In this document: one piece after another, positions 1 through 32,392 of the stretch
How positions within the stretch are numbered: position 1 is the first letter of the stretch
Layout of the letters: the number at the start of each line of letters is the position of its first letter
Assembly (NCBI GenBank): GCA_040219255.1
Contig: JAVJSW010000012.1
Span: 1 to 64,000, forward strand
Direction of reading: 5' to 3'
From: Sumerlaeia bacterium
GTDB taxonomy: Bacteria; Sumerlaeota; Sumerlaeia; SLMS01; JAHLLQ01
DNA length: 64,000 bases
The notes under the pieces: model-generated
Database searches by the model: none
What the model saw: only the letters and a program-made list of their open reading frames with translations
What the model was told of the DNA's origin: nothing
Translations under genes and position numbers: made by a program

Positions 1-140
1 ATCCTGGCTGCGTTGGCGAGCGTAACTCCCGCGGTGTCAACGTGCTGACGCTCTCGCCGACGCTCCGCATTTACCTCTGCTCGGCGCCGACGGATATGCG
101 CCGGGGCTTTGATCGCCTGGCCGCGGAGGCCCGCGCGGTG
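1..140 (+). mobile_element. Truncated IS66-family copy (3' end of tnpA plus 5' part of tnpB), inverted relative to the copy at 141-831
   Basis: GTG at 42 opens LTLSPTLRIYLCSAPTDMRRGFDRL (TnpB 'DMRxGFDGL'-like motif); 1-140 is the reverse complement of ~212-351 with about 4 mismatches. Confidence 0.8.
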
Positions 141-310
141 AGGACTTTCAAGCGATCGCCGAGCTTATTGCGAAAGACGAAAAGGTGCCCCGAAAGCGGG
201 TCCTCGTCCACCACCGCGCGGGCCTCCGCGGCCAGGCGATCAAAGCCCCGGCGCATGTCCGTCGGCGCCGAGCAGAGGTAAATGCGGAGCGTTGGCGAGA
301 GCGTCAGCAC
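141..310 (-). pseudogene. tnpB: IS66 accessory protein TnpB, C-terminally truncated
   Basis: IYLCSAPTDMRRGFDRL...DPLSGHLFVFRNKLGDRLKVL, then homology breaks at the inversion junction. Confidence 0.85.
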
Positions 311-747
311 GTTGACACCGCCGGAGTTACGCTCGCCAACGCAGCCAGGAGCCGGCACAAATCGCGCTCGTCGAACGCCGGCGGCACGCGCACCGTCGCC
401 GGACCGATCACGACCTCCAGCCAGGCGCCGCGTTCTTGATCGTTCTGGCCCAGCGCTTGACTATCGGTTTTATCGATTTTATCTTCACCAACCTGCGAAA
501 CACGCACCTCGCGGAAGCTGATCGCCCGCGACTCCGAAGCGGTCCGGCCGCCTTGCCGATCGTGTTCCACATCGCCCCGCCCTTCGGTGGCAAAGCGCTT
601 GCGCCAAGAGATAAACGACTGATAGCTCAAGCCTTGCTCGCGGCAGAAGGCGGCGGCCGAGAGTCCGCTAAGCTCCTGCTGGGCGACAGCTGCCTGCCAG
701 TGCGTTCGCTTTGCGCCGGATGTGAAGCCGGGGGTGTTGTATTCCAT
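304..747 (-). CDS. tnpA: IS66 accessory protein TnpA (HTH)
   Basis: W...QELSGLSAAAFCREQGLSYQSFISWRKRF motif; C-terminal LEVVIG..TVRV; stop overlaps tnpB start (GTGCTGA). Confidence 0.88.
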   Translation of the reverse strand: MEYNTPGFTSGAKRTHWQAAVAQQELSGLSAAAFCREQGLSYQSFISWRKRFATEGRGDVEHDRQGGRTASESRAISFREVRVSQVGEDKIDKTDSQALGQNDQERGAWLEVVIGPATVRVPPAFDERDLCRLLAALASVTPAVSTC

Positions 748-890
748 GACCTGCTCTCCGTGTATAAAATGAGGAGGCAGAATCGCACAGAGCCCCGGCG
801 ATGGTCAAGATGGGGCTCGTAGGACGTTTACCGACACGGCGCGAAAGCCGGGGTTGAAACGCCAGGGCGGGTTGTGCAGGGTGATTCATG

Positions 891-956
891 GTCAGGCCTG
901 GTTGAAATGAGCTTCAATGGTTGGCGCTAATGAAGTTAACAACAACCGGGCCTGAC
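891..956. repeat. 14-bp inverted repeat (GTCAGGCCTGGTTG / CAACCGGGCCTGAC), possible hairpin downstream of the immunity gene
   Basis: Arms at 891-904 and 943-956, one mismatch. Confidence 0.5.
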
Positions 957-1041
957 TTGTGTTTTTGGGGTGTGAGAAATTGGGGCTAGAGATTACAAAG
1001 CTGAAGGCAATATCTAGGAAAATCTCAATCGCACCGACAAT

Positions 1042-1524
1042 TTATTTAGGCCTTAGGAATATCAAGCCTTCGCCTAAGTCTGAAAGCCAAGAAGAAGCTC
1101 TCTCTAGTATTTGACTATCCATAATTATCTCTTCGAAGGTGCTTTGTATACTAAGATCCAAAACCCCCTCTATAACAAAAAAATTTTCTTCGTCACTTAC
1201 TTCCAGGGAGCCCAACAGCACATTGTTGCAATATGCATACATGCCGCATATCTTCCAATCAACATCAAACACGGGAGCCTTAAAAAAACGTCGAGCAAAA
1301 CTCTTGTCTTCTATTTTTAGCCAAAATGCATAGTACCCAGGCTCAGACAAAGATTCATCTCTAGAAAAGTTAGGAACATCCAAAAAAGCACTGTTTCCAG
1401 AGTACAATAATAAACTGTCACTGACATCTAAAATCCAATCCAATAGGATATCCCAGTACTCAATTAGAAAAGCTCCATTATCGCCTAACTCGCCCAAATA
1501 TACAAGATTTTTCATAAAATTCAT
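1042..1524 (-). CDS. Putative immunity protein for the upstream polymorphic toxin
   Basis: AT-rich ORF (~160 aa, acidic/aromatic) starting 4 nt after the toxin stop; typical toxin-immunity layout. Confidence 0.7.
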   Translation of the reverse strand: MNFMKNLVYLGELGDNGAFLIEYWDILLDWILDVSDSLLLYSGNSAFLDVPNFSRDESLSEPGYYAFWLKIEDKSFARRFFKAPVFDVDWKICGMYAYCNNVLLGSLEVSDEENFFVIEGVLDLSIQSTFEEIIMDSQILERASSWLSDLGEGLIFLRPK

Positions 1525-1528
1525 CAAC

Positions 1529-2497
1529 CTAGTTATTTGTTGTTGGAAGATTATCTCCTGGGGCAAATGTTCCGCCGCCGGGCTGTGCTGGCGTATTGGG
1601 ATCGTGATTCTTCAACCTAAAATAATCCGGAACAGTCTTCCCAGGCTTTGGTTGCTCTGCTTGCTTCTTAACATGATAGTGGTCACCATCAAAGTGTTCT
1701 GTACCGCCATGATCAGGGTGGTATTCCACTTTATAATTCTTCCCCCCTGCTTCAACATCATAGACTATTTTCCCATCCGGCTTCACAGTCTTTGTCATAC
1801 CAGGATAGTTTTCTGGAAAGAGTTCAGTTGGATTTTCTGGAAAGACGCTTTTCTTCGGCCCCTTATTATGCACCAAAATCCCCTGCTCGCCCACCCGGTA
1901 TACGTGGGCCCGGTGCACCTCCAGGTTATACACCTTGTGCAGTCCCGGCACCTCGCGCCGTTCGAGCAATTTCGCCCGGCCCCCGTCGGCCGTTTGCACC
2001 TCCTCGCCGATGGCCAGAGCCCCCGCCTCCACCCAGTCCGAGCGCGTCTCGGACCAGAACGGATGGCTTGCCGTCACCCCGATGGGTTCGCCCTCGCTGC
2101 CCGAGAACACCAGCTCCTGCACCTGCGCCCCGTCGTGCACGAACTTGCCGATGACCGTCTCCGACCCGGGCCGCTTCGGCTTGATGGGAGGGCAGGGGCC
2201 CAGCGAAACGACCTTCGCCGGGCCGACCGCGCCCATCTCCGCCAGGTCCAGGTGGATGACGTCGCCCGCTTCGTCGATTTGCCGCTCCTCGAGCCACCAC
2301 GCCGGCCTCAGGAGGCCGACCTCGACCCGGTGGCCGCCTTCCTTGTCCATGACGAACTGCACCTGGAGCCAAGTCGCCGGATCGACCGGTTCGTCGTCGT
2401 AGGAGCGGCCAGAGGCCTCGGTGGAAGCGACGGCGAGGAGAAAGAGTGCCGTTAGCAGTAGCGCCCATAGGGCTCGGGGAATGGAGAACCTGTTCAT
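1529..2497 (-). CDS. Polymorphic toxin: signal peptide, pretoxin Hint domain (N-terminal block missing), C-terminal His-rich toxin domain
   Basis: Hint motifs GVTASHPFW, WVEAGAL..GE, VYNLEV..AHVYRVG..GILVHN; GC drops sharply after HN (~1864); hydrophobic N-terminus. Confidence 0.85.
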   Translation of the reverse strand: MNRFSIPRALWALLLTALFLLAVASTEASGRSYDDEPVDPATWLQVQFVMDKEGGHRVEVGLLRPAWWLEERQIDEAGDVIHLDLAEMGAVGPAKVVSLGPCPPIKPKRPGSETVIGKFVHDGAQVQELVFSGSEGEPIGVTASHPFWSETRSDWVEAGALAIGEEVQTADGGRAKLLERREVPGLHKVYNLEVHRAHVYRVGEQGILVHNKGPKKSVFPENPTELFPENYPGMTKTVKPDGKIVYDVEAGGKNYKVEYHPDHGGTEHFDGDHYHVKKQAEQPKPGKTVPDYFRLKNHDPNTPAQPGGGTFAPGDNLPTTNN

Positions 2498-26660: not shown

Positions 26661-26797
26661 TTGCTGGGGTGCCGGATAACGGGGGCGCCTGACCCGCGCC
26701 AATTGCCTCGATCGGTGAAGAATTGCCCGGCCATCGGGCCGCTCGCGAACGGGTTTCGCTTTGGCAGAGGCCGATTACCGAGGAGGCAAACTCTGCC

Positions 26798-27604
26798 ATG
26801 AAACGCAAAACACTGATCGGATGGGCGGCTGTGGGAGCCGCGCTGTCCGCGATGCTGCCACTGGCGGCGGCTTTGGCCCAGACACCCGCATCCCGGCCAA
26901 GCCAGACTCCCCACGGCGCCACGCCCGCTCCCACGCCCGTCCTGGTGGAACTCTTCACCAGCCAGGGATGCTCGTCGTGCCCTCCGGCGGACCGGCTCTT
27001 GAACGAATTGATCGCGGAGCGATCGGTGAACGGCGCCGAAGTCATCGGTCTGGCCTGGCATGTGGATTACTGGGATGGCCTGGGTTGGCCCGATCCGTTC
27101 GCAAGCGCGGAGGCCACCGCCCGGCAACGCTGGTACAGCGGTCACTTTGACGGCCGCGTTTACACGCCCATGATGATGGTCAATGGTGGCGAAGCCTTCG
27201 TCGGCAGTTGGGCCAAACAGGCGCAGCAGAGTATCGCTTCGGCGGCAAAGTCAGAGCCGGTGGCGTTGGGCCTGACCGTCGCTGCACCGGACGAGGGGGG
27301 CGCATTGCCGGTGGAAGTGAGGCTGGCTCGGTCCTTGGGGGCGACCGGCGATGGGCTGGCGCTGGTGGTTCTGCTGGTCGAGGACGACGTGTGGACCGAG
27401 GTGCGGCGGGGGGAGAACAGGGGGCGGACCCTGACCGAATCGGGCATCGTGCGCAGCACGTTGCGAGGGCGCGAGGCGAAGAGTCAGACGGTGACGCTGA
27501 TCGTGCCGCGCGAGGTCGAACGGGAGAACGCGCGGGTTGTGGCATTTCTTCAGAACGAGCGGAGTGGCCGGGTGTTGGGGGCGGCGCAGGCGCGCTTGCC
27601 TTAG
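26798..27604 (+). CDS. DUF1223 secreted thioredoxin-like protein
   Basis: VLVELFTSQGCSSCPPAD, HVDYWD.LGW.DPF, YTP...VNG, RGEN.GR.L. Confidence 0.92.
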   Translation: MKRKTLIGWAAVGAALSAMLPLAAALAQTPASRPSQTPHGATPAPTPVLVELFTSQGCSSCPPADRLLNELIAERSVNGAEVIGLAWHVDYWDGLGWPDPFASAEATARQRWYSGHFDGRVYTPMMMVNGGEAFVGSWAKQAQQSIASAAKSEPVALGLTVAAPDEGGALPVEVRLARSLGATGDGLALVVLLVEDDVWTEVRRGENRGRTLTESGIVRSTLRGREAKSQTVTLIVPREVERENARVVAFLQNERSGRVLGAAQARLP

Positions 27605-29262
27605 TCCTTCAGCACATCGCCGAGGAGCACTTTCAGCTCCTGGCGCGAGATGGCGCCTTCGCGAAGGAGTTCGAAGCGTTCGCCGAGAGCGCTCAGGACC
27701 GTGCTGGCGCTTCCGAACTGGGTGCATTCACCGCCGTCGAGAACGCAGTGGATGCTGCCCTTGAAGTGCTCGATCAATGGCTCGGCGGTGGTGACGGGGG
27801 CATCGTCGGCCTGGACGCTGGCGTTGCGCATGGCGATAGGCCGGCCCACGCGACCGATGATGTCCAGGCAGAGCCGATTGTTGGGAATGCGAATGCCGAT
27901 TCGGTCGCTCGACGTGATGCCGTTGAGGGTTCCGGGGGCCTTTGGCAGGATCACCGTCAGGGCTCCGGGCCAGAACTTTTCGATCACTTTTTCCAGCGCG
28001 GGGGGGACTTCCCGCACGAGGGAGTCGAGCATCTCCGGACTGTGGATCAGGACGCCGAGCGTCTTCTTGTAGTCTTTGCCCTTCAGGCGGTAGAGCTGTT
28101 CGATGGCGTTGCGGTTGGTGGCGTCGGCGGCGAGACCGTAGACGGTGTCGGTGGGCAGTCCGACGATGTTGCCTTCGAGAAGGACCATCATGGCGTGCTC
28201 GACGATGTCCTCGTTGGGCTCCGCGCAGTTCACCTTGAAGACTTTGGTTTGAATGGTTTCCGTGCGGTCCTCCGGTTCGTCCTCCTCGGGTTCGGGAGAG
28301 ATGGAGAGATTGGCCTCCGGGGGAGCGGCGGCGGCGGAGCCCTTCGCCACGTCACGGTTGATCTGTGCCTCGAGGGATTCGGAGGATTCGACGGTGATGA
28401 GGGCGCGGGGCATATCGCGGGGGGTGGGGTCGATCACGGCGTCGGGTTCTGGCACGCGGTCGATTCCTCGGTGGCTGGGCGGATGGGCGAAGGCCGGTTC
28501 CTGGGGCACGGGGGTTTGCACCATCTCGCGCTTGAATGGCGGCAGCTTGGCGGGAGAGTGGGAAGCTGGAGCCCCGTTGCCGTTTCCGGCGGGTGGCCGC
28601 TCGGGAGGCCGCACGTCGGGGGAAGGCGACACCGCCCCGGGGCGGATGGGGGCCGCCTGGCTGGAGGGTTCGGGGGTGGCGGATTCGCTGGTGATGTCGC
28701 TTTCCGTCTCGTTTTCCGAATCGACGAGGACGGTATCCGAGATGGTTTTCTCCGGCAGGCAAAGCTCGGGGTATTCGTTGCCGAGTTCGCTGCGGATGCC
28801 TTCGAGACGCTGGACGCTGGCGATGCGGCGGTGGTTGAGAACGGTGCGGAATTGCGGGTGCTTGAGCGCCAGAATCTGCGCCGCTAGCACCGCCGCGTTC
28901 TCCGAGTTGTTGATGCCGACGGTGGCGATGGGGACACCCGGGGGCGTCTGAATCATGCTGTAGAGCGCGTCCTGGCCCCGCAGGGGGGAAGCGTCCACGG
29001 GGACGCCGATCACCGGCAGGTTCGTGTAGGCGGCGATCTGGGTGGCGATGTTGGAGGAACCGCCGCTGGCCGCGATGATGATTTCGATGCCGTGCTCGCT
29101 GGCGCTGAGCGCGAACTCCGAAACCCGGTCCGGCGTCCGGAAGGGCGAGATGAACTCGAAAATGTAGGGCACGCCCATGACGCGCAGGGTCTCCAGACCC
29201 CGGCGCATCACGTTGAAATCGGAACGGCTGCCAATGACGACACCCACTAATGCGGAAGGCAT
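27601..29262 (-). CDS. PurE-like / TsaC(Sua5/YrdC)-like fusion protein, both domains motif-degenerate
   Basis: N-terminal GSRSD, LPVIGVP, GQDALYS..Q.PPGVPIATV, NAA.LAAQIL (PurE); C-terminal PTDTVYGL, WPGALT, IRIP, LREGAI (YrdC); ~175 aa Pro/Glu/Ser-rich linker. Confidence 0.9.
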   Translation of the reverse strand: MPSALVGVVIGSRSDFNVMRRGLETLRVMGVPYIFEFISPFRTPDRVSEFALSASEHGIEIIIAASGGSSNIATQIAAYTNLPVIGVPVDASPLRGQDALYSMIQTPPGVPIATVGINNSENAAVLAAQILALKHPQFRTVLNHRRIASVQRLEGIRSELGNEYPELCLPEKTISDTVLVDSENETESDITSESATPEPSSQAAPIRPGAVSPSPDVRPPERPPAGNGNGAPASHSPAKLPPFKREMVQTPVPQEPAFAHPPSHRGIDRVPEPDAVIDPTPRDMPRALITVESSESLEAQINRDVAKGSAAAAPPEANLSISPEPEEDEPEDRTETIQTKVFKVNCAEPNEDIVEHAMMVLLEGNIVGLPTDTVYGLAADATNRNAIEQLYRLKGKDYKKTLGVLIHSPEMLDSLVREVPPALEKVIEKFWPGALTVILPKAPGTLNGITSSDRIGIRIPNNRLCLDIIGRVGRPIAMRNASVQADDAPVTTAEPLIEHFKGSIHCVLDGGECTQFGSASTVLSALGERFELLREGAISRQELKVLLGDVLKD

Positions 29263-29371: not shown

Positions 29372-29989
29372 TTACTTTGGTGGTGTGGCTCCCGCGACCT
29401 GCCCCTCGATCTGCTCTTCCGCGCCCATCCAATTCGTGACGAGCCATTCGTCACCCTGCTGGCGCAGGAGGACCCGGTTGGTGGAGCTTCCGGTCAGAAC
29501 CATGACCTCGGCGTTGATGCCATCTTCCAGGATCCGCTTGCTCTGAACCATGCCGGCGCCGCGGAGGGCGCCGTGGCGCAACAGGTACTTCATGGCCTCG
29601 GCGTCGTGCCGGGCGGGGGTGAAATCCTTCCAGGCCTGGGGGTCGTTCTGGTTCGGGATCCAGGAGAGGGCCTTGACGTTTTCCTCGAACCAGCTGCGCG
29701 AGGCGCTGTCGAAGAACTCCAGCCATTCCTCCACATCCACCTGGGTCGGCGAGATGTTCGAGGGGGGCACGAAGCGCTGGACCCGATTGGTGTAGGAGCG
29801 CACGGTGTCCTCTGGCGACGACCGGAGATTGGGGGCGGCGCCGGGGCCCCTGCCGCTGAGCAGAGCCCAGGCCGCCACGGCCACAATGGCCACGGGAATG
29901 AGCCAGGTCAGGGTGATCCAGATGCCCCTCGAGGTTTTTTTCGCCGCGACTTTCGCGCGTGTGCCAGCCGTCTGCTTATCGTCCGCCAT
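29372..29989 (-). CDS. Hypothetical membrane-anchored protein
   Basis: Single N-terminal TM helix; ends in an NTF2-like LRQQGDEWLV pattern. Confidence 0.7.
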   Translation of the reverse strand: MADDKQTAGTRAKVAAKKTSRGIWITLTWLIPVAIVAVAAWALLSGRGPGAAPNLRSSPEDTVRSYTNRVQRFVPPSNISPTQVDVEEWLEFFDSASRSWFEENVKALSWIPNQNDPQAWKDFTPARHDAEAMKYLLRHGALRGAGMVQSKRILEDGINAEVMVLTGSSTNRVLLRQQGDEWLVTNWMGAEEQIEGQVAGATPPK

Positions 29990-30039: not shown

Positions 30040-31752
30040 TCAGGGATTCAGGGTGGCGGGGGGATGATCCGGCGGAATCGCCAGCCCCGGGCCCCTCAAA
30101 TTCTTACCGGCTAAAGCATCGGCCAAAGTGGTGCCTTTGCCAAGGCCGAGAATGTATTCGTTCACCTGCGCCATCGCCTTGGCGACCGATGAGCCTTCCG
30201 AGTAGCGGGCGTCCGAGCCGAGCACGGCGGCGGGCCGGCTGCCCAGGTCCAGGATGCTTTCGAGGGAAATGCGATGCGCCGGGCGCGCCAGCGTGAACTG
30301 TCCGTCCGCGTTGATCATCACCACGTGATTGTCCTTCAACGTGCCGAGAACGTCTTCCACTTCGCGGTATCGGGCCCCCAGCCGGTGAACGATGTCCACG
30401 GCGTTGATTCCGCCGCGGCCTTCATCGAACGCGTCGCCGACGATCATCGCCACGCCGAGGAGCAGCCGGCAATCGAGGGGGCAGTAGGCACCGGTGAGGA
30501 AGTACTGGCGGAAGAGGCGCTTGGAGTTCTGGGCTACGTAAGTGATTTCATTCCCCAACAAGAATACAACCCATGTAAAATAGATCCATATCAAAAAGAT
30601 CGGCACCGCTCCCAGGCTCTTGATGAGTTCCTGGTTCGTGGACGACAGCATGACGTAGTAGAAGAAGCCGACCTTGGCTCCTTCCCACAGAAAGCCAGCG
30701 GCGAGGCCGCCCATCAGGGCGTACTTGAGTTTCACGTTCGTCGGCGGAATCAGCATGTAGGCCAGGGCGAGGGCCAGGGCGTTGAAAAGTGGCGTGATGA
30801 ACCCGAGGAGAAGCCCGGCGATGCCGCTGACGTCCTCGCCGGTGCCGTTGGGGTAACCGGGGTAACCGGGGGGCCGGTCAGACGGGGGCTCCGCCATTGG
30901 GGTCGGCGGCGCGGGCGCGATGTTGTCCGTAAGGGTGTCGGTCGTGGGCCGGAGGACGCCGGAGGTCATGCGGTCGAGGGAGGTGATGTCGGAGACGGCG
31001 GATCTCATGACCGATTCCGGAACTGGCAGCAAGCTCCTGGCGGGCGATTCGGCGAGATCCTCGACCGCCTCCCCCGGGTCTCCATCGGAAAACAGGGAGA
31101 CGGCGTAGGTCGACACGCTGATGGAGACGCCGGCGAAGAGGATGATAAAGAAGACAAAGAGGGTGAAACCTGTCACAGTTCGCGAAAAGTTTTGTTTGTG
31201 GCCGGTTTGCCAACTGGCTTCGAAGCCGTCCTCGATGGAGCGATAGAGAAAGGCGGCGGCCAGCAGAACACCCATGAAGCCGACGAAGCCGAGGCCGGTG
31301 GCTTTTTCCCGATAGGTTTTCGAGGCGGCCCGGACTGTTTCGGCGAGGGTGAAGAATTCCTCGCGATCGGAGTCGGACGTATGAATCGGCAGACCATCGT
31401 TGAGCATCACCGGGGTGGTGGGGGGCAGGAGACGCTGTTCGAGCCAGTCGATGAACTGGTCTTCCTGCTCATTGCCGTAGAAGGCGGCGCCGACGCCGGT
31501 GACGAAGGCCAGGAGGGGGAAAATGGACAGGATGGTGGTGTAGGTCAGCGAGGCGGCGCGCTGGAACATCTGGTCCTTGTTGATCTCGCGCCAAAGGACG
31601 AGGAGAAAGCGGGGGATGGCCAGAAAGAGCTGGTACTTACGGCTTCCCGGAAGGGAGTCCAGCTTCTCCGTCTGAATGTGGCTTCCGAGGCGGAGAACGC
31701 GATCTTTGGCGTGGGCGAGGTTTTCCAGGGTGAAAAAATTCTTCAAGGACAA
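30040..31752 (-). CDS. YihY/BrkB-family inner membrane protein with C-terminal winged helix (start uncertain)
   Basis: RAASLTYTTILSIFP, ALMGGL.AG.LWE.AK.GF, LGAVPIFLIWIY.TW...LLGNE, LARPAHRISL. Confidence 0.88.
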   Translation of the reverse strand: MSLKNFFTLENLAHAKDRVLRLGSHIQTEKLDSLPGSRKYQLFLAIPRFLLVLWREINKDQMFQRAASLTYTTILSIFPLLAFVTGVGAAFYGNEQEDQFIDWLEQRLLPPTTPVMLNDGLPIHTSDSDREEFFTLAETVRAASKTYREKATGLGFVGFMGVLLAAAFLYRSIEDGFEASWQTGHKQNFSRTVTGFTLFVFFIILFAGVSISVSTYAVSLFSDGDPGEAVEDLAESPARSLLPVPESVMRSAVSDITSLDRMTSGVLRPTTDTLTDNIAPAPPTPMAEPPSDRPPGYPGYPNGTGEDVSGIAGLLLGFITPLFNALALALAYMLIPPTNVKLKYALMGGLAAGFLWEGAKVGFFYYVMLSSTNQELIKSLGAVPIFLIWIYFTWVVFLLGNEITYVAQNSKRLFRQYFLTGAYCPLDCRLLLGVAMIVGDAFDEGRGGINAVDIVHRLGARYREVEDVLGTLKDNHVVMINADGQFTLARPAHRISLESILDLGSRPAAVLGSDARYSEGSSVAKAMAQVNEYILGLGKGTTLADALAGKNLRGPGLAIPPDHPPATLNP

Positions 31753-31921
31753 GGCCCTTCGCGCGCCAGGAGTGGACTGTACTAAGGAGGGCGGATTCGG
31801 CAACGGCAAGGGGAAAGCCCTTGTGTCGAGGTGGCCGCGCTGGTGCATTCGCGGCATACACGTTGCGTGCCGGATCACCCGCGAAGGACCCGGTATTCGC
31901 CGCAAGGAGCGCGTTTCCCCC

Positions 31922-32392
31922 ATGCCGTTGGAAAACTTCTCGTTCGTTGTCGAAGGCCTCTTGGCGGGTTGTGCGCACCCGGCGTACTTCAGCCGCGATC
32001 TGCGGGGCGGTTTGCTGGAATTGGCGGAGCACGGCATCGGCGCCATCGTGAGCCTGACGGAGGACCGGCTGCCGGCCGGGGCCTTGCAGGAGGCGGGAAT
32101 CCGCTATCTGCACCTGCCGATTCGCGATTTCACGCCGCCCTCGCAGGAGCAGATCGACCGCTTCGTGGAGTTCGTGGAGGCGGTGGAGGAGGCCAAGGCG
32201 GGCGCCGTGGTGGTGCATTGCTTCGCGGGCCAGGGCCGGACGGGGACGATGCTGGCGGCTTGGCTGGTGTACAAGGGTGCGCGGGCGGCGGAGGCGGTGG
32301 AGAAGGTGCGGGAACTGCGCCCGGGCAGCATCGAAACGGAGAAGCAGGTGGCCGCGGTGGCGGAGTACGAGAAAAGGCTGCGGGGTTTTTAG
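31922..32392 (+). CDS. Dual-specificity protein phosphatase
   Basis: VVVHCFAGQGRTGT (CX5R), LPIRDF.PP, RPGSIET.KQ. Confidence 0.93.
   Translation: MPLENFSFVVEGLLAGCAHPAYFSRDLRGGLLELAEHGIGAIVSLTEDRLPAGALQEAGIRYLHLPIRDFTPPSQEQIDRFVEFVEAVEEAKAGAVVVHCFAGQGRTGTMLAAWLVYKGARAAEAVEKVRELRPGSIETEKQVAAVAEYEKRLRGF

Follow-up and report, generated by a model that had tools for sequence, protein, structure and literature searches.

The DNA analysed here (the window, 64,000 nucleotides) comprises positions 1 to 64,000 of the forward strand of contig JAVJSW010000012.1 from a Sumerlaeia bacterium (GenBank assembly GCA_040219255.1; phylum Sumerlaeota). On its minus strand lies a gene that joins a PurE-like domain, related to N5-carboxyaminoimidazole ribonucleotide (N5-CAIR) mutase, to a TsaC-like domain, related to threonylcarbamoyl-AMP (TC-AMP) synthase. 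The gene is a real, intact PurE-TsaC fusion, typical of the phylum Sumerlaeota. In the protein studied here, catalytic motifs of both domains are altered. The best reading of the evidence is that the protein is a double pseudoenzyme that has been retained, or else an enzyme put to a new use, with a PurE-type oligomeric core.

Domain architecture of the fusion protein

The Pfam family AIRC (PF00731) matched aa (amino acids) 6-146 of the protein (E-value 9.7e-47; 158.7 bits against a cut-off of 30) and Sua5_yciO_yrdC (PF01300) matched aa 360-536 (E-value 4.8e-43; 147.2 bits). The cut-off of the NCBIfam model for purE (TIGR01162) was only just exceeded (153.9 vs 149.6 bits); that of the TC-AMP synthase model TIGR00057 was exceeded as well (149.9 bits, cut-off 123.2), and that of the type-1 TsaC model NF007919 was not reached (53 bits, cut-off 175). 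The Pfam scan detected neither a SUA5 domain nor a Kae1-like or further domain in the protein. An AlphaFold2 model built from an 82-row alignment (predicted template modelling score 0.50) had predicted local distance difference test (pLDDT) values above 90 at aa 1 to about 178 and at about aa 335-553, and below 55 for the linker between them (about aa 180-335). The 553-aa open reading frame (ORF) with two enzyme-like domains that the initial annotation had described is thus supported by an open frame and by Pfam and NCBIfam matches for both halves.

To place the protein in its family, 8000 candidate homologues were scored, of which 314 fell at E <=0.001. Among the best 120 of these 314 homologue clusters, 96 (query included) contained both Pfam domains, so that homologues with the same architecture, which the initial annotation had called for, exist in number. 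The organism names among these matches, as listed, were all Sumerlaeota, Sumerlaeia or BRC1, 'bacterium' or 'soil metagenome'. The next matches listed after the fusions (P0098-P0120) were PurE proteins of Methanobrevibacter of about 340 aa, a length that suggests a tandem PurE-PurE arrangement. The ESM Atlas contained one cluster with both families, of 82 members and most commonly assigned to Sumerlaeota.

An alignment of 97 family members fell into four groups by motif state. Group 1 consists of short forms (about 400-490 aa) with fully canonical motifs. Group 2 has ETxQD and SALK in the PurE half and retains KGR and SAN in the TsaC half; the small group 3 has lost the PurE His and also retains KGR and SAN. 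Group 4 is the large group of long-linker fusions to which our protein belongs. It is represented by 60 rows, to which the site counts given below refer (the clade).

Catalytic motifs of the PurE-like domain

PurE motifs were read from HMMER alignments to solved PurE structures. The P-loop of the protein is canonical (GSRSD) and the Arg of the 40s loop (R42) is retained. The 40s loop itself reads SPFR instead of SAHR, with Phe at the position of the catalytic His, and the 70s loop reads GGSSNIAT in place of GGAAHLPG. According to the accessible part of PMC10484210, the active-site His is important for PurE catalysis, and the substrate is contacted mostly by backbone atoms plus one Ser and one Arg.

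Across the clade the catalytic position is occupied by His (38 rows), Tyr (7), Gln (4), Phe (3), Trp (3), Ser (3), Thr (1) and Leu (1), and at least 11 independent changes between His and non-His residues were counted on the tree of the 60 rows. The Phe found here is therefore lineage-specific (3/60). PurE variants of A. aceti with replacements at this His, including the Phe variant of structure 2fw9, are reported to be essentially inactive. The second Ser of the P-loop, which binds the ribose phosphate, is Ser in 17 and Ala in 33 of the 60 rows, and the second His position, in the 70s loop (Asn in our protein), varies freely. At other positions of the domain, 90% or more of the clade rows share a residue that departs from the consensus of canonical fusions: L5, R13, F16, R27, M29, Y33, E36, F50, E60 and Q129.

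Catalytic motifs of the TsaC-like domain

TsaC motifs were mapped by alignment to Pyrococcus abyssi Sua5 (Pa-Sua5; 6f87/6f89). PTDTVYG is retained. The two halves of the K/R/S/N tetrad, KxR and SxN, read KGK and NAS, and at the positions of Pa-Sua5 R58, N62, S143, N145, S147 and G148 the protein has Lys, Lys, Asn, Ser, Gln and Ala. The accessible part of PMC6004061 describes the tetrad as taking part in ATP binding and as essential in TsaC and Sua5; it lists K56, R58, N62, S147 and G148 plus linker residues as pyrophosphate (PPi) ligands of Pa-Sua5, and T35, H67, R121, S181 and R195 as its threonine ligands.

No clade row (0/60) has a canonical SxN, and Asn stands at its first position in 55/60. 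The Arg of KxR is retained in 14/60 rows; it has undergone 21 changes on the tree, with seven different residues at the position. The equivalents of Ser147 and Gly148 are kept in 7/60 and 3/60 rows, respectively. Among 35 other fusions, SAN is present in 34, the KxR Arg in 34, the Ser147 equivalent in 25 and the Gly148 equivalent in 32, and the tetrad is complete in all 12 standalone Sua5 sequences examined. The equivalents of N62 (Lys or Arg in nearly all rows of every fusion group) and H67 (Leu in nearly all fusions of every group) are uninformative, because canonical fusions show the same states.

Four of the five threonine-binding residues of Pa-Sua5 align with the same residue here, and these pocket positions (T373, R458, S520 and R534) are invariant in the clade (60/60). 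The domain is acidic, with a median isoelectric point (pI) of 5.07 in the clade. Residues shared by 90% or more of the clade rows that differ from the canonical-fusion consensus are T339, K340, F342, H356, M358, E363, N480, C506, C513 and E531. Cys at position 513 is also found in 12/12 standalone Sua5, and Cys at 506 in 17 of the 35 other fusions.

The motif readings of the initial annotation (SPFR and GGSSNI beside an intact GSxSD and Arg; KGK and NAS beside PTDTVYG) were all recovered in the structure-based alignments. Its four substitutions (H>F, H>N, R>K and SAN>NAS) do not, however, form a conserved signature: H>F is confined to three rows, the second His and the KxR Arg are variable, and only the loss of the SxN Asn extends over the whole clade. 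Likewise, the ribose-phosphate-binding GSxSD is kept in this protein but not across the clade, given the Ser to Ala change described above.

Linker

P, E, S, A and T together make up 58% of the 157 linker residues. The Pro/Glu/Ser-rich character first noted for this segment holds, whereas its length had been put at about 175 aa and the disordered part comes to about 155 aa. Several short motifs are conserved within it or at its border. EYPDLC closes the PurE helix, and an acidic patch reads ETDPG; the other two are IRPGA and LVxTPxPQEP. IRPGA is confined to the clade. LVxTPxPQEP is common to the clade and a sister group whose TsaC domain remains canonical. The short canonical forms have none of ETDPG, IRPGA and LVxTPxPQEP. 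The conservation of these motifs indicates that the linker is more than a plain spacer. Coordinates of all features, checked for the motifs by re-translation of the window, are given in Table 1.

Table 1. Features of the fusion gene and its surroundings (positions in the window)
Feature	Position	Strand	Basis
Whole fusion gene	27601-29262	-	553 codons plus stop at 27601-27603; open frame from ATG
PurE-like domain and C-terminal helix, aa 1-178	28729-29262	-	Pfam AIRC aa 6-146; AlphaFold2 pLDDT
P-loop GSRSD, canonical, aa 11-15	29218-29232	-	Alignment to PurE structures
40s loop SPFR (vs SAHR), Phe at catalytic His, aa 39-42	29137-29148	-	Alignment to PurE structures
70s loop GGSSNIAT in place of GGAAHLPG, aa 67-74	29041-29064	-	Alignment to PurE structures
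Disordered Pro/Glu/Ala/Ser-rich linker, aa 179-335	28258-28728	-	pLDDT <55; composition
IRPGA, aa 206-210	28633-28647	-	I, P, G and A each in 95-98% of 60 clade rows
MVQTPVPQEP, aa 247-256 (clade consensus LVxTPxPQEP)	28495-28524	-	T, P, P, E and P in 100% of clade rows
TsaC-like (YrdC-fold) domain, aa 336-553	27604-28257	-	Pfam; Sua5-structure alignment; pLDDT >90
KGK in place of KGR (KxR half of tetrad), aa 394-396	28075-28083	-	Sua5 alignment
NAS in place of SAN (SxN half of tetrad), aa 480-482	27817-27825	-	Sua5 alignment
Cys506 and Cys513 beside DGG loop	27724-27747	-	In 60/60 and 55/60 clade rows
DUF1223 gene	26723-27604	+	
205-aa protein gene	29372-29989	-	No Pfam match; membrane anchor by eye
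BrkB/YihY-family gene, 668 aa	30040-32046	-	Pfam match, split by long insert
Phosphatase ORF	31676-32392	+	PF22785/PF22784/PF00782
Segment of lower GC content	1-2000		GC 53%

Standalone copies and stepwise erosion in the phylum

The genome scan covered 75 members of the phylum, which fall into 18 family-level groups; the order of our organism corresponds to f1-f4, with 25 genomes including this one. The fusion is spread across one class of the phylum.

The genome that contains the window (83 contigs, 5.35 Mb, 92% complete) also encodes a standalone PurE (contig C27; 210.5 bits on PF00731) with GSRSD, SAHRTP and GAGGAAHLPG, directly adjoined by purK (355 bits), and a standalone gene of Sua5 size (contig C60; 195.5 bits) with the full K/R/S/N tetrad. 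Both canonical genes that the initial annotation had proposed to look for are thus present. A third PurE-family paralogue (G000:C68:255422-255805, locus L003) scored 60.9 bits on PF00731; our guess is that it is LarB-like. A weak PF00731 paralogue of this kind is present in most genomes of the phylum.

Within the order, the fused frame is intact in 23/25 genomes; it is missing from two, whose completeness is 83% and 75%. These fusions score 135-182 bits in the PurE domain and 138-161 bits in the TsaC domain. A standalone PurE (188-219 bits) was found in 25/25 and a standalone Sua5-size gene (177-211 bits) in 23/25 of these genomes. A different situation was found in at least 17 of the 75 genomes (f10, f12, f13, f14 and f16), where a canonical fusion is the sole full-strength PurE and TsaC. 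Here the bit scores are 184-203 for the PurE domain and 170-186 for the TsaC domain; other PF00731 matches are only weak paralogues (about 50-60 bits), and other PF01300 matches lie in frames of about 770-850 aa, presumably of HypF size. An intermediate state is seen in nine genomes (f7, f8, f10 and f11), in which only the PurE half is degenerate (72-165 bits) and the fused TsaC domain scores 167-182 bits; a standalone PurE (189-212 bits) is present in 8/9 of them. Four f11 genomes (G013, G015, G016 and G017) have an extra short PF01300 frame of about 220-260 aa (130-166 bits), which may be a further TsaC/YciO-type paralogue.

Erosion of each domain thus accompanies a standalone copy of the same enzyme; the scanned genomes are kin, and these counts are to be read as non-independent trials.

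In f15 a homologue of 646-697 aa occurs (L053:560-2497(-), L055:519-2609(-) and L056:595-2535(+)). Its N-terminus is a PurE-like remnant that stays under the Pfam threshold (two of the three proteins score 16.9 and 24 bits), and a Clp_N domain, over the cut-off in two of the three, is inserted in the linker. Of the C-terminal TsaC domains, two are canonical. In the copy of G057, a genome with a standalone Sua5, KxR and SxN are apparently lost as judged from the sequence by eye, another pairing of erosion with a standalone gene. The f15 proteins show that the N-terminal module is retained even when it is no longer recognisable as an enzyme.

In G074, which belongs to another class, separate purE and TsaC-type genes lie adjacent on the same strand (C111:1573-2013 and 2195-2719), a pair that plausibly represents the precursor of the fusion. 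The PurE-TsaC fusion is an old, phylum-typical architecture.

Phylogeny and selection

One FastTree tree was calculated per domain. In both, all PurE-TsaC fusions group together and the long-linker group (60 or 62 rows) lies on one side of a branch, with a support of 99 in the TsaC tree and of 96, jointly with a 6-row sister group, in the PurE tree. Standalone purE and standalone sua5 of the order each fall into a clade of their own, with a support of 100 in trees without an outgroup from other phyla. In the TsaC-domain tree the TsaC-like domain arises inside the Sumerlaeota fusion lineage. This protein descends from a canonical bifunctional fusion.

Selection was compared in four same-genus genome pairs of the order. 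The PurE-like domain of the fusion showed 72-91% identity and 0.05-0.20 nonsynonymous substitutions per site (dN), the TsaC-like domain 76-90% identity and a dN of 0.054-0.165, and the linker 54-70% identity. In the same genomes, standalone PurE showed 68-84% identity (dN 0.105-0.30) and standalone Sua5 60-72% identity (dN 0.19-0.40). Where computable, the ratio of dN to synonymous substitutions per site (dS) of both fusion domains was 0.03-0.26, a rough figure. With dS mostly at or above 1, the comparison of dN and identity with those of the paralogues is the firmer basis.

Both fusion domains change at the pace of their housekeeping paralogues or more slowly and are not drifting, and the fusion is shown to be under strong purifying selection despite its eroded catalytic positions. 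The view taken at the outset, that this is not simple decay, is borne out by this conservation, by the frames kept intact in the order and by the confident prediction of both folds.

Predicted self-association of the PurE-like core

PurE enzymes are octamers with 422 symmetry in which three protomers build each active site (PMC10484210, accessible part). When four copies of aa 1-178 were modelled together, the score was 0.86, compared with 0.01 for the best of three controls; this result may merely reflect likeness to the solved PurE octamers. A score of 0.86 was reached by 20/30 proteins solved as one-chain pairs and by 1/23 solved as single chains. The runs shared at least 89% of contacts, with a partner pLDDT of at least 87. 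The clade-specific residues 13, 16, 27, 33, 60 and 129 fall among the modelled contact residues. One idea is that the interface has possibly diverged so that dead subunits would stay out of the active PurE octamer.

Neighbouring genes

A DUF1223 gene converges on the fusion gene, and the 3' ends of the two overlap by 4 bases. Its product has a thioredoxin-like CxxC and a signal-like N-terminus, and the gene is not conserved at related loci. Upstream of the fusion gene and on the same strand lie the genes for the 205-aa protein and for the BrkB/YihY-family membrane protein (Table 1), which are common only to the two closest of 11 related loci (L007 and L008). An ORF for a dual-specificity or protein tyrosine phosphatase-type protein overlaps the 5' part of the BrkB-family ORF on the opposite strand. 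The GC content of the remainder of the window, outside its first 2000 positions, is 61-70%.

Function of the eroded fusion

The fusion probably has a role outside both parent enzymes. As a whole, the explanation that we favour with moderate confidence is that it has been kept as a ligand-binding or partner-recruiting scaffold. N5-CAIR mutase and TC-AMP synthase chemistry would no longer proceed at useful rates. A PurE-type oligomeric, octamer-like core would display TsaC-like domains on long flexible linkers; these domains would keep the threonine (amino-acid) pocket, the triphosphate/pyrophosphate site having been lost, and the conserved short linker motifs may act in docking. Such a protein would be an enzyme of neither parent pathway.

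Several observations weigh against this explanation. The replacements in the TsaC site of this protein are mild in chemical terms (Lys for Arg; Ser and Asn exchanged), and its threonine pocket, P-loop and PurE Arg are intact, so residual or altered catalysis may persist. E. coli YciO, a TsaC paralogue, has very weak TC-AMP synthesis activity in vitro (10.1101/2024.07.01.601547, accessible part). With His at the PurE position in 38/60 rows and substrate contacts mostly through the backbone (as far as PMC10484210 is accessible), some members of the clade may be mutases. The threonine-pocket residues, which are invariant in active enzymes too, may be kept for folding. No operon was conserved beyond the close family, the upstream genes being shared by 2/11 related loci, and the neighbouring genes gave no partner or ligand candidate. 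The trees come from FastTree only, with no root inferred, and the dS values (0.66 to >4) are mostly saturated or near saturation, three of them not being computable.

A neofunctionalised enzyme, in which the TsaC-like domain, perhaps together with the PurE-like domain, uses a threonine-like or carbamate-type substrate, is a reading to which we give a modest chance at best. His356, Glu363, Cys506, Cys513 and Asn480 would then replace the KxR/SxN tetrad. These residues lie putatively in or near the cavity and are strongly conserved (H356, E363 and C506 in 60/60 rows, C513 and N480 in 55/60), as are those of the threonine pocket (60/60), and the strong purifying selection would fit as well. Moreover, YrdC-fold domains of HypF and TobZ adenylate other carbamates (PMC4615747 and PMC10321239, accessible parts). 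However, the positions for the ATP phosphates and PPi vary freely in the clade and the S147 and G148 equivalents are unfixed, which makes a conserved site for a nucleotide triphosphate less likely; the Cys pair also occurs outside the clade, C513 in standalone Sua5 and C506 in other fusions; and the neighbouring genes suggest no pathway.

More specific proposals, an octameric carrier or sensor for threonylcarbamoyladenosine (t6A) synthesis or a new carbamate-type reaction carried out by the newly fixed His, Glu and Cys residues, strike us as rather unlikely. The carrier or sensor would bind L-threonine or the labile TC-AMP without making it, and buffer it or pass it on, and its linker motifs would serve as docking sites for a partner, the TsaBDE machinery for instance. 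The link between purine pools and t6A that the initial annotation suggested is conjectural.

It is quite improbable that the protein is a bifunctional enzyme that still works, in both domains or in one, redundantly with the standalone genes. Its scores above the NCBIfam equivalog cut-offs, the conservative nature of KGK and NAS, the retained GSRSD and Arg and the evidently functional sole-copy canonical fusions of the family speak for such an enzyme. They are opposed by the Phe at the catalytic His, by the absence of the canonical SxN Asn from all 60 clade rows and by the drift of catalytic positions in the clade while the remainder of the protein is conserved. In addition, the tetrad is essential (PMC6004061), and sequences without it are excluded from the TsaC/Sua5 family (PMC10321239), as stated in the accessible parts of these papers.

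A functionless relic, decaying since the standalone genes made it redundant, is very improbable. The catalytic motifs of both domains were lost after standalone copies appeared, and the linker is expanded and of low complexity, as would be expected of a relic; but the frames are intact throughout the order save for the two incomplete genomes, the dN of both domains lies below that of the housekeeping paralogues, and the clade has dozens of specific invariant residues and conserved linker motifs. The chance of an assembly chimera of purE and tsaC genes is negligible: the draft genome is in many contigs, and the only public DNA metagenome run found (with 0.57 of the sampled words) yielded seven short contigs that leave 28289-28440 and 28745-29048 uncovered, none of them crossing the linker, yet the same single-frame architecture recurs in dozens of genomes and metagenomes, on contigs independent of each other, and the separate trees of the two domains both recover the clade. 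No RNA run was listed for the gene.

The phylum offers a natural series from adjacent genes through a sole-copy fusion and a fusion with an eroded PurE half to one with both halves eroded. It is well suited to the study of how a bifunctional housekeeping enzyme becomes a conserved pseudoenzyme, and of why a PurE core and a TsaC domain would persist once both are dead. The source databases label these fusions threonylcarbamoyl-AMP synthase or N5-CAIR mutase, an enzyme name that is probably wrong for this clade.

Comparison with known systems

The canonical Sumerlaeota fusions (e.g. P0070-P0096, 400-490 aa) belong to the same gene lineage and share the domain order and the PTDTVYG core with our protein. 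They differ in that GSxSD, SAHR, KxR and SAN are kept, in their short linkers without IRPGA and TPxPQEP, and in being the sole PurE and TsaC of their genomes. We found no publication on a PurE-TsaC fusion in a search that did not extend to subscription papers and supplements; the canonical fusions are annotated in databases. The word 'PurE' occurs 0 times in the accessible text of PMC4615747, PMC10321239 and PMC9654439. A survey of the TsaC/Sua5 family dropped sequences longer than 400 aa or without the tetrad (PMC10321239, accessible part), and the PurE-TsaC group is missing from it because long or tetrad-less sequences were filtered out.

Class I PurE (T. maritima 1o4v, E. coli 1qcz/1d7a and A. 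aceti 1u11) is alike in fold and P-loop, with an E-value of 2.7e-39 to 1o4v, and the solved octamers resemble the self-association predicted here. Compared with these enzymes the fusion has the His to Phe exchange, a remodelled 70s loop and a second domain, and it is not the purE of its genome. TsaC/Sua5 proteins (P. abyssi 6f87/6f89, T. maritima 9d3h and S. tokodaii 2eqa) have the same YrdC fold (E-value 1e-33), whereas our protein has lost the tetrad and the PPi-binding Ser-Gly and has no SUA5 domain. Two further relatives were considered and rejected: LarB, whose model NF033503 gave 29.2 bits against a cut-off of 175, and a HypF/TobZ-type carbamoyltransferase, as no Kae1-like domain is joined to the YrdC-like domain.

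Like the domain studied here, YciO has the YrdC fold; it occurs alongside a true TsaC/Sua5, whose job it does not take over in vivo, and it lacks the KRSN tetrad (PMC4615747, accessible part). It is distant from our domain in sequence (E-value 1.3e-7 vs 1e-33 for Sua5) and has a conserved basic patch, in contrast to the acidic domain here, a difference judged from the pI only. The weak match, the nesting among Sumerlaeota fusions and the acidic pI rule out that the domain is a YciO orthologue. In PAICS of animals, a central PurE octamer carries a fused SAICAR synthetase (PMC10484210, accessible part). In PAICS each domain is an active enzyme, and the two act in successive reactions of a single pathway, whereas the fusion studied here has a partner domain from tRNA modification and shows erosion at both sites. 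As precedents, YciO comes closest in function for the TsaC half, and PAICS in architecture.

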